DNA of 64,000 nt from Gammaproteobacteria bacterium (lineage in GTDB: Bacteria > Pseudomonadota > Gammaproteobacteria > Arenicellales > JAANXG01), in the NCBI GenBank assembly GCA_024639325.1, contig JAHEIO010000002.1:24132-88131 (forward strand), in the 5' to 3' direction. Shown here piece by piece: positions 6,285 through 61,445 of the stretch (positions within the stretch are counted from its first letter, which is position 1; each line of letters begins with the position of its first letter). A program made the translations under genes and the position numbers. The notes under the pieces were generated by a model that made no database searches, was not told the DNA's origin, and saw only the letters and a list, made by a program, of their open reading frames with translations.

Positions 6285-6375
6285 GGGCGCATTCTACCTC
6301 CCGCTACTGCTTTTTACGTTAGTTGGGGAGTACAATAGCCCAGTCCACGGCTTGTTGCGCTCGAGGAGGAACGCG

Positions 6376-7092
6376 GTGATTATCTATCCCGATATAGAGA
6401 TTCAGGACGGCAGGTGCGTGAACCTGTCCCGGGGCGGAATAGACCAGCCAAATGTTTACGATATCCCCCCCATGGACGCCGCCCGGGATTTCCAGCGGGC
6501 TGGCGCGAAGTGGCTCCACGTGGTCGATATAGACGGTGTATTTCAAGGCGGGCGTCACAACGCGGACCTGATCTGCCGGATTATCGACCAAGCCGACATA
6601 CCGGTACAGGTGGCCGGCGGCATCCGCACCATAGACGCGGTGCACTGGTGGTTCGATCATGGTGCTGGGCGAATCGTTCTTGGCACGGCGGCAGTCAAGG
6701 ACCAGCACCTGGTTGCGGAGGCCTGTGCCCGCTATCCCGGCCGGGTGGTGGTCAGCGTAGATGCCCGCAGCGGTTTTGTCGTGATCGAGGGCTGGAGGAC
6801 CAAGACAGCCTTCACGGCGCTGGAACTGGCCAGGCACTTCGAAGAGACCGGCGTAGCCGCGATCATATTTACGGACATCGATCGCTACGAAAACGTGCCT
6901 GAAAGCAGCTTTGCGGCTACCGCTGAGATGGGCACCGAATTGAGCCTGCCGGTTATTTCCACCGGAACCGTGCATGCGCTGGATGACGTGTCGACGCTCA
7001 AATACCTGCCTAACATCTCGGGCGTAATAATCGGCAGGGCGTTGTTCAATGAGGTCTTCCGCCTGGAGGAGGCAATCGAGATCGCCAGTTAG
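6376..7092 (+). CDS. HisA-family (ProFAR isomerase-like) TIM-barrel protein, divergent stand-alone paralog
   Basis: From GTG 6376 the translation VIIYPDIEIQDGRCVNL...HVVDIDG...IPVQVAGGIRT...RIVLGTAAVK...VVSVDARSG...GW...AIIFTDIDR...IIGRAL aligns along its length with HisA. The upstream part of ORF 6154-7092 overlaps the opposite-strand flavodoxin gene and was discarded. Confidence 0.7.
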   Translation: MIIYPDIEIQDGRCVNLSRGGIDQPNVYDIPPMDAARDFQRAGAKWLHVVDIDGVFQGGRHNADLICRIIDQADIPVQVAGGIRTIDAVHWWFDHGAGRIVLGTAAVKDQHLVAEACARYPGRVVVSVDARSGFVVIEGWRTKTAFTALELARHFEETGVAAIIFTDIDRYENVPESSFAATAEMGTELSLPVISTGTVHALDDVSTLKYLPNISGVIIGRALFNEVFRLEEAIEIAS

Positions 7093-7137
7093 CCCGCATA
7101 TAGCGGCACTTCCGGCGGTTCTGATGTATTGCGTGGG

Positions 7138-13744: not shown

Positions 13745-13849
13745 GCGAACGAAGTCGAAGCATCGATATTGGAATGATAGGCATCGCCGATCTTCGAAAC
13801 GTCAACGGTATACTTTTTATTCGGGATATGAGCGGATATTATCAAGAGC

Positions 13850-14656
13850 ATGATCAACGAGGACCAGATCGAGCAGTATCATCAGCACGGCGTCACCTGT
13901 CTTCGCGGCGTGTTCGCGCAGGAGTGGATCGATCTGGCCCGTAAGGGTATCGCTTGCAATATCTCTAATCCGGGTCCGTTTTTCAGAGACCATACCAGCG
14001 AGGGTTCGACGGGGCGTTACGTATTCGACTTCTGGAACTGGCGAGAAATCCCGGAATTCAGGGATCTGATATTTCGATCCCCCTTGGGAAAGCTGGGTGC
14101 GGAAGTTCTGGGCCGTGATCGCGTGCTCATGCTCATGGATAACTGGTTCATGCGTGAATCGGGCTCGGTGGACGGCGCGCCCTGGCACCACGACGAACCT
14201 TACTTCGATTTTATCGGACCCATGTGCATCGTTTGGATCCCGCTCGAGAAAGTAAGCGCAGCGCAAGGACTCACTTTCGTGCGCGGCTCTCATAACTGGG
14301 GCCGGTTGTACGCAGCGCCGCAATTCAGCGACAACGTTTCTTTCGACTGTGTCGGCGATGAGTATCATCCCATGCCGGATTTCGACAGCCGTCTTCACGA
14401 ATTCCTGAGCTGGGACCTGCAGCCCGGCGACTGTCTGGTGTTCGACATCCGGACGATTCATGCTGCCAGCGCCAAGCACAGTGCACCCCTCACCTCACAT
14501 CGAATGACGTTTCGACTCGGCGGTGACGATGTGATCTTCGAGCCACGGGGAGCGTGGACGAAGGAGATCAGCGACCACCTCATCAGCCTGGGGCAGGCGT
14601 CGGGCAAAGCGCTGGACAATCCTCTAACCCCGGTTGTTTTCGAGCGCCGATCCTGA
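13850..14656 (+). CDS. Phytanoyl-CoA dioxygenase (PhyH) family oxygenase, paralog of 567-1490
   Basis: 268 aa with APWHHDEPYF (HxD) and TFVRGSHNWG. It shares the extended block F..W.W.EIPEFRDLIFRSP with the first PhyH protein. Confidence 0.75.
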   Translation: MINEDQIEQYHQHGVTCLRGVFAQEWIDLARKGIACNISNPGPFFRDHTSEGSTGRYVFDFWNWREIPEFRDLIFRSPLGKLGAEVLGRDRVLMLMDNWFMRESGSVDGAPWHHDEPYFDFIGPMCIVWIPLEKVSAAQGLTFVRGSHNWGRLYAAPQFSDNVSFDCVGDEYHPMPDFDSRLHEFLSWDLQPGDCLVFDIRTIHAASAKHSAPLTSHRMTFRLGGDDVIFEPRGAWTKEISDHLISLGQASGKALDNPLTPVVFERRS

Positions 14657-47027: not shown

Positions 47028-48503
47028 CTAGTTGGAAACTGCGGGATTGGTGTCGATTCCACCCATACACAAGTACTTGAGTTCGAGGAACTCGTCGATT
47101 CCGTATTTGGATCCCTCCCGACCAATGCCTGATTCTTTGACACCGCCGAAGGGCGCCACCTCATTGGATATAATTCCCTCATTGATACCGACGATGCCGT
47201 ATTCCAGCGCTTCGGCTACTCGCCATATACGTCCAATGTCCCGGCTGTAGAAATAAGCGGCCAGGCCAAACTCGGTGTCGTTGGAAATGCTTATCGCCTC
47301 GTCTTCCTCGTTGAATCGTATGATTGGAGCAACCGGTCCGAATGTCTCCTCGCGATTGATCAGCATGCTCGGGCTGACGTTGGTCAACACGGTCGGCTTG
47401 AAGAAGCTTCCGCCCAATTCATGGCGTTCGCCGCCGACTGCGATAGCGGCTCCTTCGGAGACCGCGTTGTGAATATGCTGCTCCACTTTCTCTATCGCCG
47501 CCATGTCGATGAGCGGACCTTGCTGAACACCGGGCTCGAGGCCGTTGCCCACCCGCAGTTCGGATGCTGCACCGGCGAGCTTCTCCGAAAACTCATCGTA
47601 GACAGAATCCTGCACCAGGAAACGGTTCGTGCACACGCAGGTCTGACCGGTATTGCGGTATTTGGAAGCAATTGCGCCGTCTACGGCTGCATCGATATCT
47701 GCATCGTCAAAAACCACGAATGGAGCGTTGCCACCGAGTTCGAGCGAAATTTTTTTGACGGTCTGCGCACATTGCGCCATCAACAGTTTCCCTATCTCGG
47801 TCGATCCCGTGAAACTGAGTTTCCGTACATGCGGGCTGGACGTCACCTCGTTGCCGATTTCGGTAGCCGAACCGGTAATAACGTTCACGGTACCCGGCGG
47901 CAGTCCGGCGCGATCTGCGAGTTCAGCCAGAGCCAGGGCCGTAAACGGCGTCTGTTTTGCCGGTTTTACGACCACGGGACAGCCGGCTGCCAGGGCCGGG
48001 CCGCATTTTCTGGTTATCATCGCGGCAGGGAAATTCCAAGGGGTAATCGCGGCCGTGACGCCTATCCCCTGCTTGATTACCAGGATGCGTTTACCCGGAA
48101 GCGGGTGGTCTATGGTGTCACCGTATATGCGCTTGGCTTCTTCAGCGAACCACTCCAGGAAGGAAGCGGCGTAAACCGTCTCACCCCGTGCCTCGGCCAA
48201 GGGCTTACCCTGCTCGGAAGTCATCAGGGTGGCGATGTCATCCTGGTGCTGAATTATCAGATCATGCCATGCACGTAACCGGGCGGCGCGTTCCTTGCCC
48301 GTGAACTGGCGCCATGACCCCCACGCTCGATGAGCGGCATCGATCGCTTCACGGACCTCGTCTATGTTCAAACTGGGAATAGTGCCGATGATGTCGCCTG
48401 ACGCGGGATTGTTGACCTCGATTTCCTTGCCACTGACAGAATTGCGCCACTCACCGTTGATAAAACAACTTTGCTTGAACAAATCCGGATCGTTTAGTTT
48501 CAT
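47028..48503 (-). CDS. gabD: Succinate-semialdehyde dehydrogenase
   Basis: 491 aa, near-collinear with E. coli GabD (MKLND..LF...INGEW, ITPWNFPAAMITRK, LELGGNAPF, FRNTGQTCVC, EETFGP). Confidence 0.93.
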   Translation of the reverse strand: MKLNDPDLFKQSCFINGEWRNSVSGKEIEVNNPASGDIIGTIPSLNIDEVREAIDAAHRAWGSWRQFTGKERAARLRAWHDLIIQHQDDIATLMTSEQGKPLAEARGETVYAASFLEWFAEEAKRIYGDTIDHPLPGKRILVIKQGIGVTAAITPWNFPAAMITRKCGPALAAGCPVVVKPAKQTPFTALALAELADRAGLPPGTVNVITGSATEIGNEVTSSPHVRKLSFTGSTEIGKLLMAQCAQTVKKISLELGGNAPFVVFDDADIDAAVDGAIASKYRNTGQTCVCTNRFLVQDSVYDEFSEKLAGAASELRVGNGLEPGVQQGPLIDMAAIEKVEQHIHNAVSEGAAIAVGGERHELGGSFFKPTVLTNVSPSMLINREETFGPVAPIIRFNEEDEAISISNDTEFGLAAYFYSRDIGRIWRVAEALEYGIVGINEGIISNEVAPFGGVKESGIGREGSKYGIDEFLELKYLCMGGIDTNPAVSN

Positions 48504-48527: not shown

Positions 48528-51176
48528 TTAATTTAGATTTTGGACACCGAGGGCGTTCAAATTGTCCCGGGCGACTTTGTCGCCTTGCTCTGCGGCAAGT
48601 TTTAGCCATTTTACGGCCTCGATTCTATTCTGAGCTACGCCTTTGCCGTCCGCATACATGGCGCCAAGGTTGGTCTGGGCACCCGCGTAGCCCTGTTCCG
48701 CCGCCGCGCGATACCAGCGCACGGCTTCCTTGTCGTTTTTTGTAACCAGCAGGCCGGTCTGATACAAGGAGCCGAGATCAGCCTGTGCCCAGGCGGCGCC
48801 GGCCACTGCGGCATTCTGGATTTGGGGAAATGCCTTTTTGATCAAGTTTGTTCCCGCGTCCAGGTTCTGGTCCACACCACGGCCCCGGAGATACATCACC
48901 CCGAGTCGAAACTGTGCCCGGGTACTCCCTTGCTCGGCCAGGGGTTTGAGGAGCGTGTATGCTGTTTCGTATCGACCGCTGTAGTAAGCGTCGATCCCCT
49001 TTGCCACCTGTTGTTCGTCGATCTTAACTTTCTGTACCGGGGGTTTTTTCTTTTTGTCAACTCGCGATGTGTCTGCGCGCTGCTGCTGTCGCGCGCTGGC
49101 CAGGGCCGATTGACGCAGTTTCATCTGCTCGCGCAAAAGATTCAGCGTCTCACTTTCCGGGTCGATCGATGCGGCGAGTGTCAAGTTTCTCTCCACTTCA
49201 TCGAAGCGGTCGATCGCCAGCGCTTTGTTGGCCTGGTCGACATAATATCGGTATATGCCGGAGATGCCCGCCAGCGCTTCCTCGTTTTCGGGGTCGATGC
49301 TCAACGCTTCTCTCAAGTAGGGCAGAGCATTCGCTGCGGATGAACGTGTCAGCGCTTTCCCGCCGTACGCGTCTTTTGCCTGAAGCAGCAGGGAACGAAT
49401 ACGGCTGGCGTTCTCGGATTGTCGGATTGTCTCCTGCTCCGCCGGCTGCTGTTCCTCGAGCCGTTGTTGCTCGGCGAGTTTTTCCAGCCTGATCCTTTCC
49501 TGTTCCACCCGCTGCTGTTCTTCGAGTCGCTGTTGTTCGGTGAGTCTTATCTGCCTGCTGCGCTCCTCTGCCGCTGATCTAGTTTGTATCTGCTCATCCA
49601 GTTGCTTGCGCAGTGCCGCCATGCTTTCAATTTCGATATCGGAGTCTTCGAGATCATCGAGAATCGTCATCGCCGTGTCCAGTTCTCCCCTCTCGAGGTT
49701 GTCTTTGGCGCGCGTTATCAGCGCCGTAACGATTTCGTCGATTCCTTGCCGCGCATCGATATTGCCTTCATCCAGTAACAGTACAGCCCGGAAGCTCGCA
49801 AGCGCATTCTCGTTTGCGGGTTTAATCATCTCCCCACGCTCCATCTTCTCCCTTGCGGTATCGAGGAGGGCGCGTATCCCCTTGGTTTTCTGGTCCAGGT
49901 TGCGGTATTGCTCCATACGAAAATCGTCGGCCTTGCGCGTAAACTTCACGGATTCAGGAAGGTCGGGGGGGGCGTCGCCCGGCAAAGGACGTTGCAGTAT
50001 GTCCTGCGGGATTTTTGTACCCTCGATGTTCGACGGCGCCTCGGTGACCTCACGCTCCGGCGGCGAAATGAATGGTTTTATCTGGGGCCAGAAGGTAAAG
50101 ATCCCGACAGCTATCAGAAATCCCAGCGAAATGATCCAAAACAGGGGATTCGATCCGCTTGGGACCCGTTTCGGCGGGACCCGGGTCCTCGGGTCAGCGT
50201 AGAGCCTGGGCGCGTCGAGCTTGATTTCTTTTTGCGCAACTTTCGGCGGTTGGATTTGTTGCTGCTCTTCCGGATCTGCCTCGCCGTGGTTTTCGGTCTC
50301 GGCAAAAGCTGGCATGATTTCATCAACGGATTGCGGGCGATCCTGCGGGGCCGGTCGCATCAGACGGTCGACTGCGTCGAGTATCCGGGAGCCATAGCCA
50401 CTGCGGTAGGTTTCTGCAGCGGATGGCAGCGGGTCTGGATTGCCGCGGGTCAGTTCTGATACCCGCGTGTTTGCAGCCACGGGGACGCGACCGGAAATGC
50501 ACCGGTACATCACCGCCCCCATTGCGTAAAGATCCGTCCACGGGCCCAGTTTGCCCTGGTCATTGTATTGTTCGATCGCGCTGTATCCCGGCGTGACCCG
50601 CGATTCCAGCTCGGCATTCCAGATTGGCAAGGTTCGGTGCGTACTGCCAAACCCAAGTAGCAGGGGCAGCCCGCCGTCGCGAATGAAGATATTTTCGGGA
50701 TTGACATCACGATGGAGCAGTCCGTGGGAATGGACTACCCGCAGCCCCTTCAGCAGTGGAACGAACAGATCACACAGCTCGGTTTGCGCCAGTTCTCCAT
50801 GCTGTTCCAGGTGGGCATTCAGTGTGATCCCGGATTCCAGATCCATCGACAGAAAAGCGGTTCCACCTGCTTCTGCATATTCCCTGACTCGGGTGAGATA
50901 GGGTTCCTGTATTTGTGAGAGGATGCGCGCCTCCTGGAGGAACAATGTGAGGCCTTCCTCGAATCTGCTTTCCTGGCCTGGCAACGGTTGTACGGCGGTG
51001 CTGCCCGGATGGCGTTCCGCAAGCTCCCGGGGAAAATACTCCTGTAACCAGAACTCCTGCTCCGTATCCTCGAGTCGAGCGCGATAGATCACGCTGTGGC
51101 TGTTGGTGTCCACGACCTCGACGATCGCGTACTTGCCTACGCGCGTGTTGGCTTTCAGTGCACGGGGTGGGGCCAT
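48528..51176 (-). CDS. Transmembrane Ser/Thr-kinase-like protein (degenerate catalytic motifs) with coiled-coil and TPR/Sel1-repeat extracytoplasmic region
   Basis: 882 aa with kinase-like LLHRDVNPENIFI, LLLGFGS (in place of DFG) and TPGYSAIEQ. One TM segment (LFWIISLGFLIAVGIFTFW), an EQQRLEEQQ coiled coil, and C-terminal Sel1-like repeats (A.F.LG.MY..G.GV..N...A..W...AA). Confidence 0.75.
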   Translation of the reverse strand: MAPPRALKANTRVGKYAIVEVVDTNSHSVIYRARLEDTEQEFWLQEYFPRELAERHPGSTAVQPLPGQESRFEEGLTLFLQEARILSQIQEPYLTRVREYAEAGGTAFLSMDLESGITLNAHLEQHGELAQTELCDLFVPLLKGLRVVHSHGLLHRDVNPENIFIRDGGLPLLLGFGSTHRTLPIWNAELESRVTPGYSAIEQYNDQGKLGPWTDLYAMGAVMYRCISGRVPVAANTRVSELTRGNPDPLPSAAETYRSGYGSRILDAVDRLMRPAPQDRPQSVDEIMPAFAETENHGEADPEEQQQIQPPKVAQKEIKLDAPRLYADPRTRVPPKRVPSGSNPLFWIISLGFLIAVGIFTFWPQIKPFISPPEREVTEAPSNIEGTKIPQDILQRPLPGDAPPDLPESVKFTRKADDFRMEQYRNLDQKTKGIRALLDTAREKMERGEMIKPANENALASFRAVLLLDEGNIDARQGIDEIVTALITRAKDNLERGELDTAMTILDDLEDSDIEIESMAALRKQLDEQIQTRSAAEERSRQIRLTEQQRLEEQQRVEQERIRLEKLAEQQRLEEQQPAEQETIRQSENASRIRSLLLQAKDAYGGKALTRSSAANALPYLREALSIDPENEEALAGISGIYRYYVDQANKALAIDRFDEVERNLTLAASIDPESETLNLLREQMKLRQSALASARQQQRADTSRVDKKKKPPVQKVKIDEQQVAKGIDAYYSGRYETAYTLLKPLAEQGSTRAQFRLGVMYLRGRGVDQNLDAGTNLIKKAFPQIQNAAVAGAAWAQADLGSLYQTGLLVTKNDKEAVRWYRAAAEQGYAGAQTNLGAMYADGKGVAQNRIEAVKWLKLAAEQGDKVARDNLNALGVQNLN
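49446..49544. repeat. Intragenic 33-nt near-duplicate with 66-nt period (encodes EQQRLEEQQ coiled-coil units)
   Basis: CTGCTGTTCCTCGAGCCGTTGTTGCTCGGCGAG (49446-49478) versus CTGCTGTTCTTCGAGTCGCTGTTGTTCGGTGAG (49512-49544). Confidence 0.7.
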
Positions 51177-51447
51177 CTGGGGAACTGGTTAAGTGTAACT
51201 CTCTATTTTGCAATGGTTTTTGATCTCTGGTCCAGCCAAAGAAGCTGCAAATTCGATGGTTTTTACCGAATACCGACGGTGTTCAGTGTTTTTCGCCCTT
51301 GCCCGCGCATGCCGCCGCAGCGGCCGGGCTAGCACCGGTCCTGAAAAGATAGATAATCGCGACTCCCCAGTCCGGCGTTCATCGGCACCTGCCCTGCGCA
51401 AGCGCTCGGGATCCTGGTGAGAAATGCGGGCTAGAAATTCCTCAAAG

Positions 51448-51467
51448 AGCCGTATTCAGCAACGGCT
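51448..51467 (-). terminator. Candidate rho-independent terminator after the prpE-like gene
   Basis: AGCCGT (51448-51453) pairs with ACGGCT (51462-51467) just downstream (minus strand) of the stop at 51474. The following minus-strand tract CTTTGAGGAATTTCT is only weakly U-rich. Confidence 0.4.
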
Positions 51468-51473
51468 GATTTT

Positions 51474-53372
51474 CTATTCTTTTTTTGCGTAGCCGATTGA
51501 CTTCAATACTTCCGTGATTTCGTCCAGAATGACCGGGTCATCAATAGTGGCGGGCATCTTCCACGGCGCAACGTCCGCGATCTTCTGCATGGTGCCGCGC
51601 AGGATCTTGCCGGAACGCGTCTTCGGCAGGCGTTTGACGACGACCGCCTGTTTGAAGGCCGCGACCGGCCCAATTCGATCGCGCACCATTTTAATCACTT
51701 CTTTGGCTATGTCTTCGTGGCTCCGCTCACATCCGGCGTTGAGAACGATGAAACCAAGCGGAACCTGCCCCTTGAGCTTGTCCGCAACACCGGTCACCGC
51801 GCACTCGGCAACATCGGGATGCGCCGACAGCACTTCTTCCATCGCCCCCGTGGACAACCGGTGTCCCGCCACGTTGATGATGTCGTCGGTTCTGGACATC
51901 ACGAACACGTACCCGTCTTCGTCTATGAAACCCGCGTCCGCGGTTTTGTAATAGCCAGGATAATCGGCCAGGTATGCCTCGTGGTGTCTTTCTTTCGCGT
52001 TCCACAGTGTGGGGAATGTTCCTGGCGGCAACGGCAGTTTGACCACCAGCGCACCGATTTCGCCCGCCTTTATTTCCTGTAAGTCTTCGCCGAGCACCCT
52101 GAGATCCCAGCCGGGTACGGCCTTGGAGGGCGACCCTTCCTTAACCGGCAGGAGTTCGATCCCGGTGCAGTTTGCACAGATGGCCCAGCCGGTCTCCGTT
52201 TGCCACCAGTGGTCGATCACGGGGACCTTGAGTTTTTCCTGCGCCCAAACCAGCGTGGCCGGGTCGCAGCGCTCGCCCGCGAGAAACAGGCTGTCAAGGC
52301 ACGTCAGATCGTAATCCGCAACCAGTTTTCCGTCGGGGTCTTCCTTCTTGATAGCTCGGAACGCGGTTGGCGCCGTAAACAGGCATCTGACTTCGTGCTC
52401 GGAGATGACTCGCCAGAACGCGCCCGCATCCGGTGTTCCCACCGGCTTTCCTTCATAGAGAATGGTGGTGTTGCCGTTGAACAGCGGCGCGTAGACTATG
52501 TACGAGTGACCAACTACCCATCCAACGTCCGAGGCAGCCCAGTAAACGTCCCCGGGGTCGATGTCGTAAATGCTCTTCATCGACCATTTAAGCGCGACCG
52601 CGTGCCCGCCGTTGTCACGCACGATGCCTTTAGGCTGCCCCGTGGTGCCTGAGGTGTACAGAATGTAGAGTGGATCCGTCGCCGCCACGGACACGCAATC
52701 GTGGGCTTCAGCCGATGCCATCAGTTCCTTCATGTCGTAGTCGCGCCCTTCCACCAGCGCAGCGATGGCCTGCTCGCGCTGCAGGATGATGCAAGCGTCG
52801 GGCTTATGAGTGGCGGTATCGATTGCCTCGTCCAGGAGCGGCTTGTATTCCACGATTCTGCCGGGTTCTATACCGCAGGAAGCCGTGACGATCACCTTGG
52901 GCTGTGCGTCGTCAATGCGAACCGCCAGTTCATTGGCGGCAAACCCGCCGAATACAACGGAGTGGACGGCACCCAACCTGGCGCACGCCAACATCGAGAT
53001 TGCGGCCTCGGCGATCATGGGCATGTAGATGATGACCCGCTCACCCTTTACGACGCCTTTTTCGGCCAGCATCCCCGCGAAACGGGCAACCTCGTCCCGC
53101 AGTTCACGGTAGGTGTACGTGCGCTGACTATCCGTGATGGGGCTGTCGTAGATCAGGGCGGCCTGGTCGGCCCTGCCATTTTCCACGTGGACGTCCAGCG
53201 CGTTGTAACAGGTATTGAGTTCGCCGCCCGTAAACCATCGATAATACGGCGCATCGCTGTCATCGAGTACCTTGTCCCATTTCTTATACCAGTGTATGTG
53301 CTCCGCGGCGCTGCCCCAGAACTTTTCCGGATTGTTCAGTGATTCCTGATAGATTTCATCGTACGCGCTCAT
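51474..53372 (-). CDS. prpE: Propionate--CoA ligase / acetyl-CoA synthetase family (PrpE-like)
   Basis: 632 aa. The N-terminus MSAYDEIYQESLNNPEKFWG...RWFTGGELNTCYNALD parallels E. coli PrpE. AMP-binding motif YTSGTTGQPKG. Confidence 0.75.
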   Translation of the reverse strand: MSAYDEIYQESLNNPEKFWGSAAEHIHWYKKWDKVLDDSDAPYYRWFTGGELNTCYNALDVHVENGRADQAALIYDSPITDSQRTYTYRELRDEVARFAGMLAEKGVVKGERVIIYMPMIAEAAISMLACARLGAVHSVVFGGFAANELAVRIDDAQPKVIVTASCGIEPGRIVEYKPLLDEAIDTATHKPDACIILQREQAIAALVEGRDYDMKELMASAEAHDCVSVAATDPLYILYTSGTTGQPKGIVRDNGGHAVALKWSMKSIYDIDPGDVYWAASDVGWVVGHSYIVYAPLFNGNTTILYEGKPVGTPDAGAFWRVISEHEVRCLFTAPTAFRAIKKEDPDGKLVADYDLTCLDSLFLAGERCDPATLVWAQEKLKVPVIDHWWQTETGWAICANCTGIELLPVKEGSPSKAVPGWDLRVLGEDLQEIKAGEIGALVVKLPLPPGTFPTLWNAKERHHEAYLADYPGYYKTADAGFIDEDGYVFVMSRTDDIINVAGHRLSTGAMEEVLSAHPDVAECAVTGVADKLKGQVPLGFIVLNAGCERSHEDIAKEVIKMVRDRIGPVAAFKQAVVVKRLPKTRSGKILRGTMQKIADVAPWKMPATIDDPVILDEITEVLKSIGYAKKE

Positions 53373-53997: not shown

Positions 53998-55113
53998 ATG
54001 TTAGATATTCACAAACCACTGAGGAATAGTCTTGCCGGTGCGGTCGCACTTGGCCTTGCACTTGCCGCGGGTTCGTCCCTTGCCGCAGGTGAATTGAAGG
54101 TCTACAACTGGGCGGAATACATCGGCGAGGAAACCATCGCTAATTTCGAAAAGGAATTCGACGTCAAGGTCACCTACGACAACTACGACTCGGTGGAGAC
54201 CGCCGATGCGAAACTTTTGGCAGGCGGCTCGGGCTACGATGTAGTGAGCCATTCGGGCAGCGCGATAGGTCGCCTGATCCCCGCCGGCATCCTGATGGAA
54301 CTCGACAAATCGAAGCTGCCCAATCTTAAGCACATGCGCGACGATGTGATGGGACAGCTGTCCAAGAACTGGGATCCGGGCAACAAGTACATCATTCCGT
54401 TCATGTGGGGCACCCACGGCGTGACCTATAACGCAGAACTGGTCAAGAGCGTGGCGCCGGACGTGCCGATCGGGTCGATGGACATGATCTTCGACCCGGT
54501 GCACATGGAAAAGCTGGCCAAGTGCGGGGTGGCGTTCCTTGATTCACCCACCGACGTCATCCCCATGGCGCTGGCTTATATGGGCCTCGACCCGTCTTCC
54601 AACGACAAGGAAGACTACAAGAAGGTCGAGGAGATGCTCCTCAAGATCAGGCCTTACATCAAGACGTTCGACAACTATGCGTATCAGAAGATGCCTGAAA
54701 AGGAGTTCTGCGTGGCGGTAACCTGGGGTCCGGACGGCCTGCTGGCGGTTTCCGGCGCCGAGGAAGCGGGTGCCAACGTGACGTTGGACTTCTTCTCGCC
54801 CCCCGGGCCGGGTAAGGCCAACATCTGGGTCGACGGCTGGATCGTCCCCAGTGACGCCCAGAATGTCGAGAATGCCTACCTTTTCCTGAACTACATGATG
54901 CGCCCCGAAGTCGGTGCCGCGGACAGCAACTTCACCTGGTACGCGACCGCCAACAAGGATGCCATTCCTCTGATCGACGAGGCGGTTACCAGCAGTCAGG
55001 CGGCCTTCCCGCCGGCGGAAATGGTGCAGGACATGTACCCGTTAGCCGTGATTCCACCCAAAGTCGAGCGTGTGCGCACGCGGACCTGGACCAACTTCAA
55101 GTCGGGTGGCTAG
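53998..55113 (+). CDS. potF: Putrescine/polyamine ABC transporter periplasmic binding protein
   Basis: 371 aa with a signal peptide. LKVYNWAEYIGEETIANFEKEFDVKVTYD... and the C-terminal RVRTRTWTNFKSG are collinear with E. coli PotF. Confidence 0.9.
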   Translation: MLDIHKPLRNSLAGAVALGLALAAGSSLAAGELKVYNWAEYIGEETIANFEKEFDVKVTYDNYDSVETADAKLLAGGSGYDVVSHSGSAIGRLIPAGILMELDKSKLPNLKHMRDDVMGQLSKNWDPGNKYIIPFMWGTHGVTYNAELVKSVAPDVPIGSMDMIFDPVHMEKLAKCGVAFLDSPTDVIPMALAYMGLDPSSNDKEDYKKVEEMLLKIRPYIKTFDNYAYQKMPEKEFCVAVTWGPDGLLAVSGAEEAGANVTLDFFSPPGPGKANIWVDGWIVPSDAQNVENAYLFLNYMMRPEVGAADSNFTWYATANKDAIPLIDEAVTSSQAAFPPAEMVQDMYPLAVIPPKVERVRTRTWTNFKSGG

Positions 55114-55191
55114 ATTCGATCTGGCGGCGCTGCCATTTCCGGCGGCGCCGCACGCCCCGGAATTCATACAGTTGTAGCGGGATCCGTCCCG

Positions 55192-56337
55192 GTGTCTGAA
55201 CAAACGCAGTTCGACGACCGTCCATGGTTGGACCCTGAAGCCGAACCCTTTATCCAGGTGAGCGGTGTCACAAAACGGTTTGGTACATTTACCGCCGTCG
55301 ACAACGTTGATCTGCAGATCTATCAGGGAGAATTATTCTGCATGCTCGGTGGATCGGGCTGCGGCAAAACGACGCTGCTGCGCATGCTGGCCGGATTCGA
55401 TAATCCAACCTCCGGCAGCATCTATATCGATGGTGCCGACATGACCGATGTTCCGCCCTACGAGCGACCGGTCAATATGATGTTCCAGTCCTACGCGTTG
55501 TTCCCGCACATGACCGTCGAACAAAATGTCGCCTACGGACTGAAGCGGGACGGCGTCGACAAGCAGGAAATCCTCCAGCGCGTCGAGGAAATGCTGAAGA
55601 TGGTGGAGTTGTCGCAGTTTGCGAAGCGCAAACCGCACCAGCTGTCGGGAGGGCAACGCCAACGGGTCGCTCTGGCGCGCGCGTTGGTAAAAAGACCCAA
55701 GGCCTTGCTGCTCGACGAACCGCTCGGCGCGCTGGACAAGCGTCTGCGTGCGCAGACGCAGTACGAATTGATGAATATTCAGGATCAGCTGGGCGTTACC
55801 TTCGTCGTGGTGACGCATGACCAGGAGGAGGCAATGATCCTGTCGACGCGGATCGCCGTAATGGATGCGGGGAAGTTTGCGCAGATCGGCACGCCAACCG
55901 AGATTTATGAGTCTCCGGAGACCCGATTCGTTGCAAATTTCATCGGTTCGGCGAACATGTTCGAAGGTCGCATCACCGAAGACAGCGCCGATCACGTCGT
56001 GGTCCGGTCCTCCGACCCTGCATGCGAGTTCTATATCGACCACGGCGTGTCCATTAAGGAAGGCAGCAAGGTGTGGGTCGCGGTAAGACCCGAAAAAATT
56101 CGAGTATCCGTGTCGGCACCGGAAAATGCGGCGGCAAATCAACTGAGCGGAACCGTTCGGGACGTGGGTTATCTAGGCAACACCTCGACCTATCGCGTGC
56201 AGGTTGCAGATGGACAGATCGTTGAGGTGACCCATCCTAATCAGAGCCGCCCCCGTGGCGGCAAGCATGCGGTCGATTGGGACGACGTGGTTCATCTGAG
56301 CTGGGAGCCATCCAGTGCGGTGGTGCTGACGGAATGA
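55192..56337 (+). CDS. potG: Polyamine ABC transporter ATP-binding protein
   Basis: 381 aa with Walker A GGSGCGKTT, signature LSGGQRQRVALARAL, Walker B LLLDEP and a C-terminal TOBE-like domain. GTG start. Confidence 0.9.
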   Translation: MSEQTQFDDRPWLDPEAEPFIQVSGVTKRFGTFTAVDNVDLQIYQGELFCMLGGSGCGKTTLLRMLAGFDNPTSGSIYIDGADMTDVPPYERPVNMMFQSYALFPHMTVEQNVAYGLKRDGVDKQEILQRVEEMLKMVELSQFAKRKPHQLSGGQRQRVALARALVKRPKALLLDEPLGALDKRLRAQTQYELMNIQDQLGVTFVVVTHDQEEAMILSTRIAVMDAGKFAQIGTPTEIYESPETRFVANFIGSANMFEGRITEDSADHVVVRSSDPACEFYIDHGVSIKEGSKVWVAVRPEKIRVSVSAPENAAANQLSGTVRDVGYLGNTSTYRVQVADGQIVEVTHPNQSRPRGGKHAVDWDDVVHLSWEPSSAVVLTE

Positions 56338-57311
56338 CCGGACCGGTCTCCGGCTCATCAAATGGTGCGATGGAGACCCGTGATATGAGCTCGATTCTGT
56401 CCGCCTATGCGGCGCAGCTTCAGCACCGGGCGCAGTCCGGCTGGCGCAGTATCGTCGTTTTCGTTCCCTATATCTGGCTGTTTGTTTTCTTCCTGGCTCC
56501 CTTTCTCATTGTTCTGAAGATCAGTCTGGCGGAGTCGCTCATCGCCAGCCCGCCGTTTTCACCGTTGTTCGAATGGACGGAGGAGGGTGTGCTGACCTTG
56601 CAGCTGGTCTTCGACAATTACAGCTACCTTTGGGAAGACGACCTGTACGTCAAGACCTACCTGAATTCGATCAAGATATCGACCATTTCCACCATGCTGT
56701 GCCTGATTCTCGGCTATCCCATCGCCTATGCGATTGTTCGGTCTTCACCGACGACGAAGAACATCCTGTTGATGATGATCATATTACCGTTCTGGACGTC
56801 GTTCCTACTGCGCGTCTACGCGTGGATGGGGCTGCTGGCTGATCAGGGCACGATCAACAGTTTTCTGGTGTGGCTCGGCGTCATCGATGCACCCATCCGG
56901 ATGATGTATTCGGAGTTCGCGGTATACGTCGGGATCGTATACACCTACGTGCCGTTCATGATCCTTCCGCTGTATGCCAACATGGAGAAGCTCGACATCA
57001 CCTTGCACGAGGCCGCCGCGGATCTGGGGGCCAGACCTGTTACCACGTTTCTCACCATCACCCTGCCCTTGACATCGCCCGGCATCCTCGCCGGCTCGCT
57101 GCTGGTGTTCATCCCGGCAACCGGCGAATTCGTCATACCCGACCTGCTTGGCGGCGGCAATGTGCTGATGATCGGCCGCGTTCTCTACAACGAGTTCAAT
57201 TCCAATCACGACTGGCCCGTGGCGGCGGCGGTGGCGATCGTTCTGCTCTTCGTGCTGGTGATCCCGATGATGATTTATCAGCACGTACAGTCGAGGGAAT
57301 CTGAGGGCTGA
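56334..57311 (+). CDS. potH: Polyamine ABC transporter permease
   Basis: ATG 56334 forms an ATGA overlap with the potG stop. Six TM segments and the EAA-loop HEAAADLGARP. Confidence 0.85.
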   Translation: MTGPVSGSSNGAMETRDMSSILSAYAAQLQHRAQSGWRSIVVFVPYIWLFVFFLAPFLIVLKISLAESLIASPPFSPLFEWTEEGVLTLQLVFDNYSYLWEDDLYVKTYLNSIKISTISTMLCLILGYPIAYAIVRSSPTTKNILLMMIILPFWTSFLLRVYAWMGLLADQGTINSFLVWLGVIDAPIRMMYSEFAVYVGIVYTYVPFMILPLYANMEKLDITLHEAAADLGARPVTTFLTITLPLTSPGILAGSLLVFIPATGEFVIPDLLGGGNVLMIGRVLYNEFNSNHDWPVAAAVAIVLLFVLVIPMMIYQHVQSRESEG

Positions 57312-57313
57312 TC

Positions 57314-58168
57314 GTGGGGAAAAAGCGCTCCACATTTCTGTTTTCGGTGCTGTGTTTCGGCATGGCTTTCCTGTACGTGCCGATGATATTTTTGATTATC
57401 TACTCTTTCAATTACTCGAAGATCGTCGCCGTCTGGGGGGGGTGGTCGTTGCGCTGGTATGCGGAACTGTTCCGCAGCCAGGAGATCTGGGATGCGCTTG
57501 TTCTCAGTCTTAAGATCGCGCTGATGAATGCCACTTTCGCGACCCTGCTGGGTACGCTGGCGGGACTTGCCCTGGTGCGCTTCGGCCGATTCAAGGGCCG
57601 CACGTTGTTTACCGGGATGATCACCGCGCCGCTGGTCATGCCCGAGGTAATAACGGGGCTTTCACTGCTGCTGTTGTTCATTACGCTGGGCGACCTGATC
57701 GGGTGGCCCGGCGAGCGCGGAATCACAACGATTACCATTGCGCACATCACATTCTCCATGGCTTATGTCGCGGTAATCATCCAATCCAGGCTTGCGGGCA
57801 TGGCTCAGGATCTGGAGGAAGCCGCCATGGATCTTGGCGGCAAGCCGTTTCGGGTGCTGGTGGATATCACCTTGCCGCTGCTTGCACCGGGTATGGTCTC
57901 GGGCTGGCTGCTGTCGTTTACCCTGTCGCTGGATGATCTGGTGATCGCGAGCTTCGTTTCAGGCCCAGGGGCGAATACCCTGCCCATGTTGATTTATTCC
58001 CGTGTTCGACTGGGCCTGAAGCCTGATATCAATGCGCTGGCCACCATTATCATCGTGGTGGTGGCGGTTGGTGTCATTGCCGCCGGCTACCTGATGTTGA
58101 GACAGCAGAAACAGCGCGAAAGGGACATGCAGATGGCGGCGACCGACACGGTGAAGGTGACTGCGTAG
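57314..58168 (+). CDS. potI: Polyamine ABC transporter permease
   Basis: 284 aa with six TM segments and the EAA-loop EEAAMDLGGKP. GTG start 2 nt after the potH stop. Confidence 0.85.
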   Translation: MGKKRSTFLFSVLCFGMAFLYVPMIFLIIYSFNYSKIVAVWGGWSLRWYAELFRSQEIWDALVLSLKIALMNATFATLLGTLAGLALVRFGRFKGRTLFTGMITAPLVMPEVITGLSLLLLFITLGDLIGWPGERGITTITIAHITFSMAYVAVIIQSRLAGMAQDLEEAAMDLGGKPFRVLVDITLPLLAPGMVSGWLLSFTLSLDDLVIASFVSGPGANTLPMLIYSRVRLGLKPDINALATIIIVVVAVGVIAAGYLMLRQQKQRERDMQMAATDTVKVTA

Positions 58169-58264: not shown

Positions 58265-60100
58265 TTACAAGAGCGACAGGGAATCGTTTATCTTTGCCAC
58301 CGTACCCGCGCCCGGTTCTTTTTCCAATTTTCCCACTGGCAGCCTATTCTGGATCTGCCGGTGGAACGCGCTTACCCCCCATTCGGCACTGCTCAACGTG
58401 CCTTCAGGGAACGCACTGGAATTCATGCCTTCCTGGATCCAGTTCACGAAGCTCTCGTCCTCGAATGAGGTCTGCCTGTTGATTCTCATGTTCAGGTATC
58501 GGGCCGCGCGGGCTTCCCGGCGCGAGTCGGGCAGTGCGAAGCTGCGGCCGGTGTACATCGTTTTCCCTGGTGCCACGGGCAGCGTCATATAGTATTCCAT
58601 GCTGTCTGGGTACAGAGCGAAGACCAGATTGGGAAATAGCGCGAAGTAAAACCAACGCCGCTGGTTTTCGTCCGGCAAATGGGCGTAGTGCGGCAGGCAC
58701 TTTTGATAGTTGGCCACGCTCCACAGCTTCCCCGGTTTATCCTGGATCCGACCATAGGACCACGGCAGGCCGTCCTCCTCGAGGTCCTCGTATTCACGGC
58801 CAAACAGCTGGTGCAGGGATGGATGACCGACGGGTACATGGTAGCCTTCGTTGTCGATATCGTGAATGACTTTCCAGTTGACCGACCGTGTCTGCCTGAA
58901 TTCGGGGATGATCGGCTGCATGTTCTGCAGTTGATAAGGAGCGACTTTCTCCTCTATCCGTTCAAGTGTGGATGCAACACTCGAATCGGTACGCCGAAAT
59001 GCGACGAACACAAAACCGTTCCACACCTCCAGATCGATAGGCACCAGGCCGAGCGTGCGCTTGTCCAGATCAGTAAAGGTGGTCGCCGCAGGAACGCTTT
59101 TCAGGCTGCCGTCCAGGTTGTAGGACCAGCCGTGAAACGGGCAAACCATCGCGCGTTTGCAGCTGCCCTTTTGATCACGTACCACACGGCCACCACGATG
59201 GCGGCAGACGTTGTGAAATGCCTGCAATTCATTATCGGTGCCTCGAATTACGATGGCGCGTTCTCCCAGGCCGTCGAAGGTGACGAAGTCGCCCGCTTCG
59301 CGAAGTTCGCTGAGGTGTCCGGCAAGCAGCCAGTTGTGCTTGAATAGATGCTCGACCTCGAGATCAAAAAACTCGTCGTTGGCATAGGTCCAGGGGGCCA
59401 TGAGCGTCCGAAACGGCGGACTGTCCGGGATGCTGCGGGGTTTGACATCGTCGAAACGCCCGGGAAACAGGTTCATCAGATAGCCTATGCAGGTAGCCTT
59501 GGCCTTGCCGCAATCGAAAACGTCCGGTTCACGCAGAAGGTCCTCCCAGTAGCCGTCGAGCAGGCCTTCGAAGCCGCGGGCCGCAGCATGGGTGTCGAAC
59601 CGGGAATGGGCGCCCTGCCGGCATAGCTGCGAGAAAGACCGGTGGATGACGTCATATCGTGCGGAATCTTTGGCACCGCATATAGCCAGGTAGTCTGATC
59701 GGGCCTGACTTTCGCCCCAGTATGCCGACCATACTGCCGCCTTGTGGCTGTTGAAAATCCGAGGATCGAAGAAGGCGTCGATGAGTCGCAGCAGAACGAG
59801 GTCCGGCTCCGCGTCGTGTTCGACCGCGGACTGCACCTGGGCATCGAACTCGTTTGCCATCTCTTGCAGCGTTTCGAGGAGCAGCTGTGTCTTGCTTTTG
59901 AAGTAAAAATTGACGATGCCGGGAGACAATTTCGCCGCACTTGCGACCTTTGCCAGGGTGACGCGTGACAGGCCGTGTTCAGCAATAGTCAGTATCGTTG
60001 CATCGATGAGCTGACGTCGGCGTTGGTTGCGGGCGAAATTATTGGACAGGGATGCCTTGCCAGTGGGTGTTGCGGTAGCCATGGATGGTCCGGATTGCAT
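58265..60100 (-). CDS. Fusion protein: TetR-family HTH regulator (N-terminal ~215 aa) + Rieske [2Fe-2S] non-haem-iron oxygenase alpha subunit
   Basis: A single uninterrupted 611-aa ORF. The TetR HTH is ILTIAEHGLSRVTLAKVASAAKLSPGIVNFYFKSK. The Rieske motif is CRHRGGRV...CPFHGWSY. The mononuclear iron motif is DNEGYHVPVGH. The start is 60100 or 60082. Confidence 0.75.
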   Translation of the reverse strand: MQSGPSMATATPTGKASLSNNFARNQRRRQLIDATILTIAEHGLSRVTLAKVASAAKLSPGIVNFYFKSKTQLLLETLQEMANEFDAQVQSAVEHDAEPDLVLLRLIDAFFDPRIFNSHKAAVWSAYWGESQARSDYLAICGAKDSARYDVIHRSFSQLCRQGAHSRFDTHAAARGFEGLLDGYWEDLLREPDVFDCGKAKATCIGYLMNLFPGRFDDVKPRSIPDSPPFRTLMAPWTYANDEFFDLEVEHLFKHNWLLAGHLSELREAGDFVTFDGLGERAIVIRGTDNELQAFHNVCRHRGGRVVRDQKGSCKRAMVCPFHGWSYNLDGSLKSVPAATTFTDLDKRTLGLVPIDLEVWNGFVFVAFRRTDSSVASTLERIEEKVAPYQLQNMQPIIPEFRQTRSVNWKVIHDIDNEGYHVPVGHPSLHQLFGREYEDLEEDGLPWSYGRIQDKPGKLWSVANYQKCLPHYAHLPDENQRRWFYFALFPNLVFALYPDSMEYYMTLPVAPGKTMYTGRSFALPDSRREARAARYLNMRINRQTSFEDESFVNWIQEGMNSSAFPEGTLSSAEWGVSAFHRQIQNRLPVGKLEKEPGAGTVAKINDSLSLL

Positions 60101-60114
60101 CGGAAATGGTCAAA

Positions 60115-60150
60115 TTATACAATCGTTCAAAATATTAAACAATTGTATAA
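60115..60150. promoter_or_regulatory. Candidate operator: 9-bp perfect inverted repeat in a divergent promoter region
   Basis: TTATACAAT (60115-60123) and ATTGTATAA (60142-60150) are separated by 18 nt. They lie in the AT-rich 55-bp gap between the TetR-Rieske gene and the amine oxidase gene. Confidence 0.4.
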
Positions 60151-60155
60151 GTTTT

Positions 60156-61445
60156 ATGGATGTGGATTTGGTGATTGTCGGAGCTGGGGCGGCGGGTATC
60201 GGCGCGGCCAAGGCGGCGCGTCGGCTGGATCTTGATCACGTCGTGGTCGAGGCCTCCCACCGGATCGGGGGCAGGGCATATACGGAGCATCCTGCGCCCG
60301 GGATTTGGTTCGATCTGGGATGCCACTGGCTGCACAGCGCCAGCCGCAACCCGCTGACCCGCTTGCTCGTGCCTTACGGGATGGACGTCCAGAAAACCTG
60401 GCACTGGCGGTCGGGTATTTTTCGTAACAAACGATGGCTGGATGGCAAAAAAGCCAGGGAATTCGAGATAAAAGCGCTCGACGCCGCGGCCGAGCTGGCC
60501 GGCCAGGGCGAGGATATCGCGGTGTGCGATGCCTATGATCGTGACAGCGAGTGGGCGCCCCTCATGGACTACTGGATTTCGCTCAACCACTCGACCGATT
60601 CCGACCAGGTTTCCATCAGGGATATGTGTGCCTATGAGGCCACTGGCGAGAACCAGGACTGGCCCGTCAAGCAGGGGCTCGGCACCCTAATTGCCAGATT
60701 CGGTGCGGATGTGCCGGTTCTGCTCAATGCAGCGGTTACCCGTATCGATTACAGTGGCGGTGTAATTCTGGTCCATACGAAGGGCGGCGATATACGGGCG
60801 TCGCGAGTGCTGCTAACGGTATCCACGGGCGTGCTGAACGCGGGCGACGTCAAATTCACACCCGCGTTGCCCGCCTGGAAGCAGGATGCTATCAACGATC
60901 TGCCGCTTGGAAATCACAACCGGATCTGCCTGGTATTCGACCGTGATGTCTTCGGGGTTTACCGGCGGGACACGGCGACGTTCTTTGATGACGATGATCC
61001 CCCGATGAATTTTTGCATAAGCCCGTTCGGATCGAACTGTGCGGTTGCGGTCACGGGAGGCCGGTTCGCCGACTGGCTTGAGCGGGCGGGGCAGCAGGCG
61101 TCGATCGACTACGCGCGCGAGAGGCTGGTGAAAATGTTTGGTAGCGAGGCGGGACGGCACATCGAAAATGCCACGGTAAGCGCATGGCGCGGAGATCCCT
61201 GGATACGCGGTGCCTATTCCGCAACCAGACCGGGTGCATATGGGGCAAGACATATGCTGGCTGAGCCTGTCGATGAGAAGATATACTTTGCCGGCGAGGC
61301 AACTTCTGAAAATTTCATGGACACCGCACACGGTGCATATATTTCAGGCGTTCGTGAAACACTGCGCGTAGCGAATACCATTTCATCTAACGACCGCAAT
61401 CCTGTTCATCCTGAAGCAATGGCGCGGGAACTCGCATCCTGTTGA
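60156..61445 (+). CDS. Flavin-containing amine oxidase family protein
   Basis: From ATG 60156: MDVDLVIVGAGAAGIGAAKAA (FAD GxGxxG), ...EASHRIGGR..., and C-terminal YFAGEATS. The upstream extension of the ORF (60027) overlaps the divergent gene. Confidence 0.8.
   Translation: MDVDLVIVGAGAAGIGAAKAARRLDLDHVVVEASHRIGGRAYTEHPAPGIWFDLGCHWLHSASRNPLTRLLVPYGMDVQKTWHWRSGIFRNKRWLDGKKAREFEIKALDAAAELAGQGEDIAVCDAYDRDSEWAPLMDYWISLNHSTDSDQVSIRDMCAYEATGENQDWPVKQGLGTLIARFGADVPVLLNAAVTRIDYSGGVILVHTKGGDIRASRVLLTVSTGVLNAGDVKFTPALPAWKQDAINDLPLGNHNRICLVFDRDVFGVYRRDTATFFDDDDPPMNFCISPFGSNCAVAVTGGRFADWLERAGQQASIDYARERLVKMFGSEAGRHIENATVSAWRGDPWIRGAYSATRPGAYGARHMLAEPVDEKIYFAGEATSENFMDTAHGAYISGVRETLRVANTISSNDRNPVHPEAMARELASC

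Follow-up and report, generated by a model that had tools for sequence, protein, structure and literature searches.

A 611-aa open reading frame (ORF) in a 64,000-nucleotide stretch of gammaproteobacterial DNA (assembly GCA_024639325.1, contig JAHEIO010000002.1, positions 24,132 to 88,131; hereafter the window) joins a BetI-type TetR regulator to a Rieske non-haem-iron oxygenase alpha subunit. Many marine bacteria share this fusion, and the data lean towards a conserved, bifunctional repressor-oxygenase, with coupled halves, that controls its own amine pathway. A dual role, as an amine-degrading enzyme and as the switch of the pathway, is probable because the fusion is conserved and adjoins its own conserved double operator. 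The computed evidence comprises the fusion itself, the conservation of cofactor and helix-turn-helix (HTH) residues, the conserved operator, a split ancestral arrangement and a sister clade of pseudo-enzymes. Loci and homologous proteins are referred to by our L and P numbers.

A TetR regulator and a Rieske oxygenase share one reading frame

The fusion gene and its domains are located as follows.

58265 to 60100, minus strand: fusion gene encoding a BetI-type TetR regulator and a Rieske non-haem-iron oxygenase alpha subunit (611-aa ORF, ATG start)
59873 to 60010, minus strand: TetR_N HTH DNA-binding domain, aa 31-76 (PF00440, 39 bits against a cutoff of 24)
59465 to 59794, minus strand: BetI-type TetR_C_6 ligand-binding and dimerisation domain, aa 103-212 (PF13977, 42.6 bits against a cutoff of 27)
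59396 to 59464, minus strand: inter-domain linker, approximately aa 213-235, variable among homologues and with a low predicted local distance difference test score (pLDDT)
59078 to 59335, minus strand: Rieske [2Fe-2S] domain, aa 256-341, with ligands C299, H301, C320 and H323 (PF00355, 65.6 bits)
58340 to 58888, minus strand: catalytic mononuclear-iron domain Ring_hydroxyl_A, aa 405-587 (PF00848, 110.8 bits), with E418 as the bridging residue, H421 and H426 as ligands of the iron, D548 as the probable carboxylate ligand and the signature D-I-D-N-E-G-Y-H-V

All four Pfam domains scored well above their gathering thresholds and were found in one reading frame, in agreement with an earlier interpretation of this DNA (the sequence-only reading), which had described a single ORF fusing a complete TetR to a complete Rieske oxygenase alpha subunit. 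Both motifs cited in that reading, CRHRGG...CPFHGW and DNEGYHVPVGH, were found in the ORF. The annotated start codon, ATG 60100, is probably placed too far upstream. Homologues of the fusion protein, the 96%-identical P0001 among them, start at the position corresponding to Met7, and ATG 60082 (605 aa) may thus be the true start. A GGA lies approximately 8-10 nt upstream of this codon, and a start here would give a leader of about 25 nt, counted from a TG-TATAAT element. The choice of start codon leaves the other results on the fusion gene unaffected.

A whole-protein search of approximately 5.8 billion protein clusters returned 1292 matches, the best 120 of which were checked for their architecture. 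All 120 (588-640 aa, 46-96% identity) contained the same four Pfam domains. These proteins came from NCBI, JGI, ENA and Logan assemblies, some of them from contigs of 3-5 Mb, and carried generic names such as 'Rieske 2Fe-2S domain-containing protein', 'SRPBCC family protein' or 'transcriptional regulator BetI'. None of the NCBIfam models reached its cutoff with the fusion protein, and no curated family model was found. At the DNA level, 18 other loci among those that we fetched encoded a TetR-like and a Rieske-like half in one frame, with less than 300 nt between them; the nearest were L001/L009, from an uncultured gammaproteobacterial metagenome-assembled genome (MAG), and L085, at approximately 96% identity. 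The TetR_N and Rieske architecture, which the sequence-only reading had proposed to look for in databases, therefore occurs in at least 120 proteins and 18 other loci. That reading had called enzyme-repressor fusions rare; this one is not an isolated case and represents a sizeable, unnamed family with a sister branch of pseudo-enzymes.

The reading frame was uninterrupted across the linker in all fused loci, and the fused, in-frame state held in every relative down to approximately 42% identity. The scenario in which orthologues would be two genes separated by a stop codon at the junction, put forward earlier as the refutation of the fusion, thus fails. Separate halves were only found in more distant relatives, where the two genes lie on opposite strands and are not split by a stop codon. 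We therefore consider it virtually certain that the TetR-Rieske fusion is real. An assembly or sequencing artefact, in which a lost stop codon or a frameshift joined two adjacent genes, has nothing in its favour beyond the rarity of such architectures, and its probability is negligible: the same in-frame fusion is conserved in 120 non-redundant proteins of independent sources, including the 3-5 Mb contigs, and in 18 loci, and a lost stop codon could not fuse the oppositely oriented genes of the split relatives.

The fusion gene adjoins a conserved double palindrome

The fusion gene is separated from the ATG of a divergent amine-oxidase gene (60156) by a gap of 55 bp (60101-60155; 76% A+T). This gap holds the inverted repeat TTATACAAT-N18-ATTGTATAA, exactly the perfect 9-bp repeat with N18 spacing that the sequence-only reading had described in an AT-rich gap of 55 bp. 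A perfect 9-bp inverted repeat was obtained by chance in 82 out of 5000 shuffles of the AT-rich 55-mer (1.6%). Taken by itself the repeat is weak evidence; its significance comes from its conservation across loci.

Side-by-side comparison of the DNA upstream of all fusion genes yielded the pattern TTRWAY-N4-RTWYAA. The gap contains two 16-bp palindromes matching this pattern, with centres 20 bp apart, and the 9-N18-9 repeat corresponds to their outer arms. They are the sole exact matches in the 64 kb of the window. A single long-spaced operator was rejected and replaced by these two 6-N4-6 palindromes. The earlier proposal of a TetR binding site is thus retained as a very good operator candidate; its long spacing is not, as the repeat is really made of two standard palindromes of the BetI type. 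The palindromes and the -10-like elements of the gap, each of which falls within palindrome A or B, are listed below.

60115 to 60130, no strand assigned: palindrome B, adjoining the fusion gene, TTATAC-AATC-GTTCAA on the plus strand (exact match to the pattern)
60135 to 60150, no strand assigned: palindrome A, adjoining the amine-oxidase gene, TTAAAC-AATT-GTATAA on the plus strand (exact match to the pattern)
60121 to 60114, minus strand: -10-like TG-TATAAT, overlapping palindrome B
60118 to 60123, plus strand: -10-like TACAAT, overlapping palindrome B
60146 to 60151, plus strand: -10-like TATAAG, overlapping palindrome A
60147 to 60142, minus strand: -10-like TACAAT, overlapping palindrome A

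Paired palindromes with the same 20-bp offset (21 bp in L090) were present in L081, L082/83, L084-L089, L090 and L091, where they stand 8-104 bp upstream of the fusion start. The double-site loci represent approximately 10 lineages, between which the surrounding DNA shows no other similarity. In L092-L096, only the downstream palindrome passed at one mismatch or less; the upstream copy, read by eye, is a degenerate CTGTAY-N4-ATACAG palindrome. L002 only contained two overlapping one-mismatch matches. At the same threshold of one mismatch or less, the background was 33 matches in 746 kb of other loci. Upstream of the ABC (ATP-binding cassette) transporter genes found next to the fusion gene, only chance-level matches were detected at two mismatches or less.

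Two independent checks of the pattern were available. The Escherichia coli K-12 betI-betT intergenic region, read directly, contained TTGATT-GGAC-GTTCAA as the sole match in the 7-kb locus. In L003 (Halioglobus) and L004 (Granulosicoccus), the nearest loci in which regulator and oxygenase are separate genes, a perfect TTGAAC-N4-GTTCAA was found approximately 60 bp upstream of the TetR gene. Collectively, these data make it likely that the double palindrome is the autoregulatory operator of the fusion protein, a function predicted from motif conservation. It is very improbable that the palindromes are just two AT-rich -10 elements placed back to back, with the TetR half binding elsewhere or nowhere. 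The outer arms do hold TATAAT-like and TATAAG-like hexamers, and both the base composition and the frequency of the repeat in shuffled sequences are compatible with such an explanation. Against it, the inner arms (GTTCAA/TTGAAC and GTTTAA) are not -10-like and yet are conserved, the 20-bp register is maintained in approximately 10 lineages, the double site is also found in L090-L096, where the upstream gene runs in the same direction and a divergent promoter is lacking, and the same motif is found at the BetI-controlled region of E. coli.

Both halves retain the residues expected of a repressor and an oxygenase

Residue conservation was scored across 37 aligned fusions. Invariant positions included the Rieske ligands C299, H301, C320 and H323, as well as E418, H421, H426 and the pair E547-D548. 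The carboxylate iron ligand is probably D548, an assignment made from position and conservation only. In the regulator half, the HTH residues T48, A56, S59, G61, F65, F67 and K70 and the TetR C-domain residues W124, R134, Y137 and W185 were invariant. The linker (approximately aa 213-235) varied in both length and sequence.

The AlphaFold2 model computed from the fusion alignment (mean pLDDT 86.7; predicted template modelling score, pTM, 0.63) displayed a full nine-helix TetR fold (helices 17-211, high pLDDT) and a confident Rieske oxygenase fold. The mean pLDDT of the linker was 75 for residues 211-220 and 54 for residues 221-230, with values below 50 for residues 220-225. The pTM of 0.63 would fit two domains that have no fixed mutual orientation. 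Since the linker is variable and modelled with low confidence, no fixed inter-domain interface is predicted.

The N-half was 27% identical to E. coli BetI (E = 2e-15), and the RRRQLIDAT start of the HTH region was near-identical. It missed the cutoffs of both BetI equivalogs (TIGR03384, 101.3 against 201.3; NF001978, 96.9 against 118), and its sequence is best described as BetI-like but not BetI.

The best matches of the oxygenase half among PDB sequences were CntA, Stc2 and 3n0q, which covered its N-terminal half only. Foldseek ranked CntA first (target TM-score 0.79-0.80, 23% identity), followed by Stc2 (approximately 0.71). No beta-subunit gene was found nearby in Pfam scans of the flanking ORFs. 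Group V, which comprises the Rieske oxygenases of quaternary ammonium compounds, is defined by a bridging glutamate (CntA E205) and by Tyr or Phe (clade Va) or Asn (clade Vb) at position 203 (PMC7948474); the Y203 position of CntA holds the trimethylammonium group by a cation-pi contact (PMC7948474; PMC10952381). The third defining feature is a pair of cysteines, Cys206 and Cys209, which flank the first iron histidine and lie next to the iron (PMC10952381). In an ungapped alignment, E418 matched CntA E205, indicating that the bridging glutamate is present, and H421 and H426 matched CntA H208 and H213. CntA Y203 aligned with D416, a residue found neither in Va nor in Vb, and an Asp occupies this position in 163/163 members of the clade. 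CntA C206 and C209 aligned with G419 and V422, so that the cysteine pair is absent. The signature D[IV]DNEGYHV was found in all 163 clade members, whether fused or unfused. The GbcA model NF058607 matched at 145.9-147.6 bits against a cutoff of 670, over model positions 37-238 of 420.

Membership of the GbcA/CntA group V was rejected on the basis of D416 and of the missing cysteine pair. By its sequence, the oxygenase half is a relative of group V and not a member of Va or Vb. The sequence-only reading had called it GbcA/CntA-like and had assigned it to quaternary amines: the nearest neighbours agree with the first part of this proposal, whereas the residue at position 203, the cysteine pair and the GbcA score do not. 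Since two hallmarks of group V are lacking, a quaternary-amine substrate is doubtful. The invariant carboxylate at the cation-recognition position rather suggests a protonated primary, secondary or tertiary amine, and the substrate of the D[IV]DNEGYHV clade is probably not a classical quaternary amine. Given the conserved ligand set, we expect with reasonable confidence that the oxygenase half is an active enzyme.

Split relatives suggest how the fusion arose

Relatives of the Rieske half at 40-55% identity were mostly encoded by stand-alone genes. In 50 such loci, a separate homologue of the N-half (31-40% identity) was found nearby on the opposite strand, and in the two split loci scanned with Pfam the separate regulator contained TetR_N and TetR_C_6. 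The TetR gene was immediately divergent to the Rieske gene in L019, L022, L024 and L076, among others. Of the 50 split loci, 46 encoded a homologous PotF-type ABC transporter binding protein, as did most closer fusion loci with sufficient flanking sequence. The presence of both separate genes beside the same PotF-type ABC transporter indicates that the fusion joined a pathway repressor to the enzyme that it regulated. In a crude neighbour-joining tree built without support values, the fusions fell in one broad, mainly gammaproteobacterial clade with unfused members interleaved, suggesting that fusion or fission probably occurred more than once.

A sister branch has lost the catalytic iron ligands

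When the N-half was searched alone against 1.84 billion representatives, 2882 matches were obtained, 66 of them below 1e-30. The best 150 included stand-alone TetRs (200-260 aa), fusions of the type described here (approximately 590-630 aa) and a shorter class (approximately 470-590 aa), in which Pfam detected TetR and Rieske domains with weak oxygenase scores. In alignments, the HTH of the shorter class was highly conserved and both Rieske cysteines were present; missing were both iron histidines, usually D548 and often one of the Rieske histidines. Among the 49 long representatives nearest to the TetR half, 11 kept all eight metal-binding and bridging residues, approximately 35 did not and one was truncated; the degenerate members include P0144, P0147, P0149, P0153, P0158 and P0161.

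Since the oxygenase-derived domain is retained although catalysis is lost, it probably has a part in regulation, either as a sensor or through assembly. The pseudo-enzyme branch therefore suggests that the oxygenase half can serve as a sensor. Only one of three loci of the degenerate subfamily, L169, had usable context, and the TTRWAY-N4-RTWYAA operator was not found in it. Its degenerate fusion (8001-9671) is divergent to genes for PotHI-type permeases, and a separate, canonical group-V Rieske gene is located at 296-1486.

A 1342-aa protein, P0135, combined TetR, Rieske and truncated catalytic domains with an ABC exporter (ABC_membrane and ABC_tran). Most probably, this protein results from chimeric gene calling or misassembly and does not reflect a genuine architecture.

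A model for a coupled repressor-oxygenase and its alternatives

We infer DNA binding, repression, catalytic activity, a substrate class and allosteric coupling as the elements of the following mechanism. The N-half would act as a BetI-type repressor, with two dimers bound to 60115-60130 and 60135-60150. The palindromes take in all candidate -10 elements of the two divergent promoters, so that their occupation would repress both the fusion gene and the amine-oxidase gene. The C-half would be an alpha-only Rieske monooxygenase related to CntA, Stc2 and GbcA. It would most likely hydroxylate the carbon next to the nitrogen (oxidative N-dealkylation) of a cationic amine imported by the PotF-type ABC transporter, and the product would then be deaminated by the amine oxidase, or by an aminotransferase in other lineages. 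With a pathway repressor joined to the enzyme under its control, the likely benefit would be a direct relay of the substrate, product or redox state of the enzyme to the DNA-binding module. This relay could operate alone or together with a BetI-type ligand pocket, and the pathway would be induced when its amine is present.

Functional coupling between the TetR and Rieske halves, as judged from comparative data, comes close to an even chance. Coupling was ranked above independent modules mainly because the pseudo-enzyme branch retains the oxygenase-derived domain. In its most specific form, substrate binding or the redox state of the Rieske cluster or of the iron would move the TetR heads and free the double operator. 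Such a turnover-coupled switch is unlikely as formulated, and would require a higher-order assembly such as a dimer of trimers with three TetR dimers. If true, the cell would read the flux through the oxygenase and not just the concentration of a ligand, and the dead sister subfamily would be the same device minus catalysis.

Several observations weigh against a coupled, active repressor-oxygenase. A flexible linker would suit independent modules as well as coupled ones, and the fused forms are not cleanly monophyletic in the crude tree, so that the two halves can evidently work apart. Pfam detected no reductase or ferredoxin partner among the ORFs of approximately 40.7-63.2 kb of the window, and no ORF of at least 80 aa in the whole window displayed a plant-type ferredoxin or ferredoxin-NADP reductase (FNR) motif. 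The Pfam scan and the motif screen (Fer2/FNR) therefore agree with the earlier remark that no reductase gene is visible nearby, and a typical FNR/Fer2-type reductase was not among the genes called around the fusion in L081-L084 either; a partner may be encoded elsewhere. The loci in which the operator pattern was counted were also those used to derive it, and a consensus promoter scan of the gap found no canonical -35/-10 pair. The oligomeric state also sets a constraint. TetR proteins are dimers. In CntA, a head-to-tail trimer is needed for electron transfer from the Rieske cluster to the iron (PMC7948474). One chain must reconcile the TetR dimer with a CntA-type trimer, for example as a dimer of trimers.

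The best surviving alternative is that the protein consists of a ligand-gated repressor, which uses its own BetI-type pocket, and an ordinary enzyme, with no signal passing between them. The fusion would then only provide co-expression, a fixed stoichiometry or oligomer avidity for the tandem operators. This arrangement is consistent with a complete TetR_C_6 domain bearing invariant aromatic and basic residues, with a flexible and poorly conserved linker, with the existence of close unfused relatives, interleaved with fused forms in the tree, and with a split form that works with a separate TetR. It does not account readily for the large sister subfamily, which keeps an oxygenase-derived domain on a conserved HTH after the loss of the iron ligands, or for the persistence of the fused state across 42-96% identity, and we regard it as rather doubtful.

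Alternatively, the Rieske half could carry out no turnover and be purely a sensor of a ligand, redox state, iron or oxygen, like the aminotransferase-like domain of MocR/GabR. The existence of the pseudo-enzyme subfamily, the missing reductase partner and the location of the L169 degenerate fusion beside a separate, intact Rieske oxygenase would all fit this explanation. It is nevertheless improbable for the fusion described here: all eight metal-binding and bridging residues and the D[IV]DNEGYHV signature are invariant in its subfamily, unfused orthologues, necessarily the enzymes of the pathway, have the same active-site residues, and a second copy of the oxygenase was not found in the 64-kb window.

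The fusion resembles known enzyme-regulators

Few bacterial switches are as well understood as TetR regulators, typically two-domain proteins of approximately 200 aa; Rieske oxygenases are obligate oligomeric redox enzymes. The regulatory logic of an enzyme-regulator fusion is known, and the pairing of TetR with a Rieske oxygenase is what appears to be new. A literature search of incomplete coverage did not find a publication on this architecture.

The N-half shares PF13977 with BetI, the choline-responsive TetR-family repressor of E. coli (betT/betIBA). The 6-N4-6 geometry and the half-sites match those of the E. coli betI-betT site, and the sites lie in a divergent promoter region. Unlike BetI, the fusion has two tandem palindromes instead of one match and an oxygenase of approximately 380 aa at its C-terminus, and its neighbours are an amine oxidase and a PotF-type ABC transporter rather than betAB/betT. 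Tandem operators are found with Tn10 TetR, where tetO1 and tetO2 lie in a short tetR-tetA divergent region, overlap both promoters and bind one dimer each. The two tandem palindromes of the fusion are arranged similarly in a short divergent intergenic region and differ in operator sequence and spacing; Tn10 TetR is a stand-alone protein of approximately 200 aa.

Like CntA, GbcA/BmoA and Stc2, the oxygenase half appears to be alpha-only, with a bridging glutamate where an aspartate would otherwise stand, Rieske and 2-His-1-carboxylate ligands and an amine-catabolic context. It differs from CntA, GbcA and Stc2 in being joined to a regulator, in its low identity (approximately 23%) and in having no adjacent reductase.

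PutA and the trigger enzymes BirA and NadR also combine a DNA-binding domain and a pathway enzyme in one polypeptide, and the fusion likewise unites a DNA-binding domain with a predicted intact catalytic domain. As with PutA, the operator lies in a divergent promoter that includes the gene of the protein itself. DNA binding by PutA is controlled through the redox state of its cofactor, and we propose coupling of this kind for the TetR-Rieske fusion. Unlike PutA, a ribbon-helix-helix protein, the fusion uses a TetR HTH and another class of enzyme and keeps a complete small-molecule-binding regulator domain. The pseudo-enzyme TetR-Rieske branch looks like the evolutionary outcome seen in MocR/GabR, in which an HTH is joined to a sensor of aminotransferase fold, although the folds on both sides differ. 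In contrast with MocR/GabR, the fusion protein is probably still an enzyme since every catalytic residue is kept.

In tetralin degradation, the electron-transfer components ThnY and ThnA3 of a Rieske dioxygenase system are reported to act as regulators (PMC3771892). Transcription of a pathway has thus been linked before to the redox state of its own Rieske system; the signal there passes between separate proteins to a LysR activator, whereas here the oxygenase is covalently joined to the repressor.

The fusion extends the short list of enzyme-regulators by a new combination, with a predicted operator at hand, and poses a structural puzzle through the dimer and trimer demands placed on one chain. 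Public data contain a series of separate genes, a predicted active fusion and a pseudo-enzyme sensor that may illustrate how an enzyme can become a sensor domain. They also reveal a large amine-pathway Rieske clade (D[IV]DNEGYHV) whose genes accompany those of PotF-type transporters in marine Proteobacteria. If the coupling is real, the fusion protein could serve as a self-contained biosensor.

The neighbouring genes point to the catabolism of an imported amine

The genes closest to the fusion are the following.

60156 to 61445, plus strand: flavin amine oxidase, 429 aa from ATG 60156, divergent to the fusion gene (PF01593, 160 bits)
53998 to 58168, plus strand: PotF/G/H/I-type ABC importer, convergent with the fusion gene (Pfam)
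53998 to 55113, plus strand: binding protein of the importer
55192 to 56337, plus strand: ATPase of the importer
ending at 57311 and at 58168, plus strand: the two permeases of the importer

The PF01593 match on the plus strand confirmed the divergent amine-oxidase gene of the sequence-only reading. A divergent amine-oxidase homologue was found at this locus and in L081-L088, which are all the fusion loci with upstream DNA and at least 48% identity (most at least 72%). The amine oxidase is probably a co-regulated target of the fusion protein. The binding protein scored 322 bits with NCBIfam PotF, below the cutoff of 636 bits, and is thus PotF-like without reaching an equivalog; the importer is probably the uptake system for the amine of the pathway. 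In the distant fusion group L090-L096 (for example L092, 1737-9251), a PotD/F-type ABC transporter is followed by the double operator, the fusion and an overlapping gene for a class-III aminotransferase, which takes the place of the amine oxidase. Rhodobacterales clusters add an aminotransferase, two CrtI-like flavoproteins, a GCV_T aminomethyltransferase and a second Rieske gene. In L084 (11844-15551), a 49%-identical fusion locus, the fusion is followed by genes for a 695-aa oxidoreductase of the Old Yellow Enzyme (OYE) type with FMN and NAD(P) domains and for a non-Pyl MttB-family protein, which resembles trimethylamine methyltransferase. These neighbours hint at the metabolism of methylated amines, and the oxidoreductase hints at a possible electron donor. 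Collectively, the neighbouring genes point to the catabolism of an imported amine by N-dealkylation steps followed by deamination.

Tandem Rieske oxygenase genes were observed in L049 (7935-10300) and in approximately 35 other Rhodobacterales or alphaproteobacterial loci. In these pairs, the downstream gene is the orthologue with DVDNEGYHV and the upstream paralogue is 22-27% identical to the oxygenase of the fusion; in L049 the latter carries the canonical group-V signature ENYNECLHC. The L049 tandem is preceded by genes for a GCV_T aminomethyltransferase, two CrtI-like flavoproteins and an aminotransferase. The tandem genes may encode sequential N-dealkylation steps. L024, a split locus from a Rhodobacterales MAG, contained extra genes around the TetR/Rieske/PotF-ABC core (3760-7117 and 13107-14042), encoding a dimethylglycine-dehydrogenase-like protein (DAO and GCV_T), a choline/ethanolamine-kinase-like protein and a member of the dimethylsulfoniopropionate (DMSP)-lyase family.

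The 68-aa ORFs called after the fusion in L081 (12092-12298) and L082 (11841-12047), which could pass for a conserved gene, were rejected as spurious because they are not homologous to each other; they have no counterpart in the 64-kb window.

Further from the fusion gene, a succinate-semialdehyde dehydrogenase (SSADH)-like aldehyde dehydrogenase is encoded at 47028-48503 on the minus strand. It scored 803 bits against the GabD equivalog cutoff of 828 and passed the cutoff of the SSADH subfamily. An aldehyde end-product of the amine pathway could be its substrate. The gene lies approximately 10 kb from the cluster, separated from it by genes on the minus strand (48528-53372) for an 882-aa Ser/Thr protein kinase with Sel1 repeats and an acetyl-CoA synthetase. 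The acetyl-CoA synthetase gene is also found beside the ABC transporter in L081 and L082, and the kinase gene in L081, which indicates conserved local synteny among these gammaproteobacteria.

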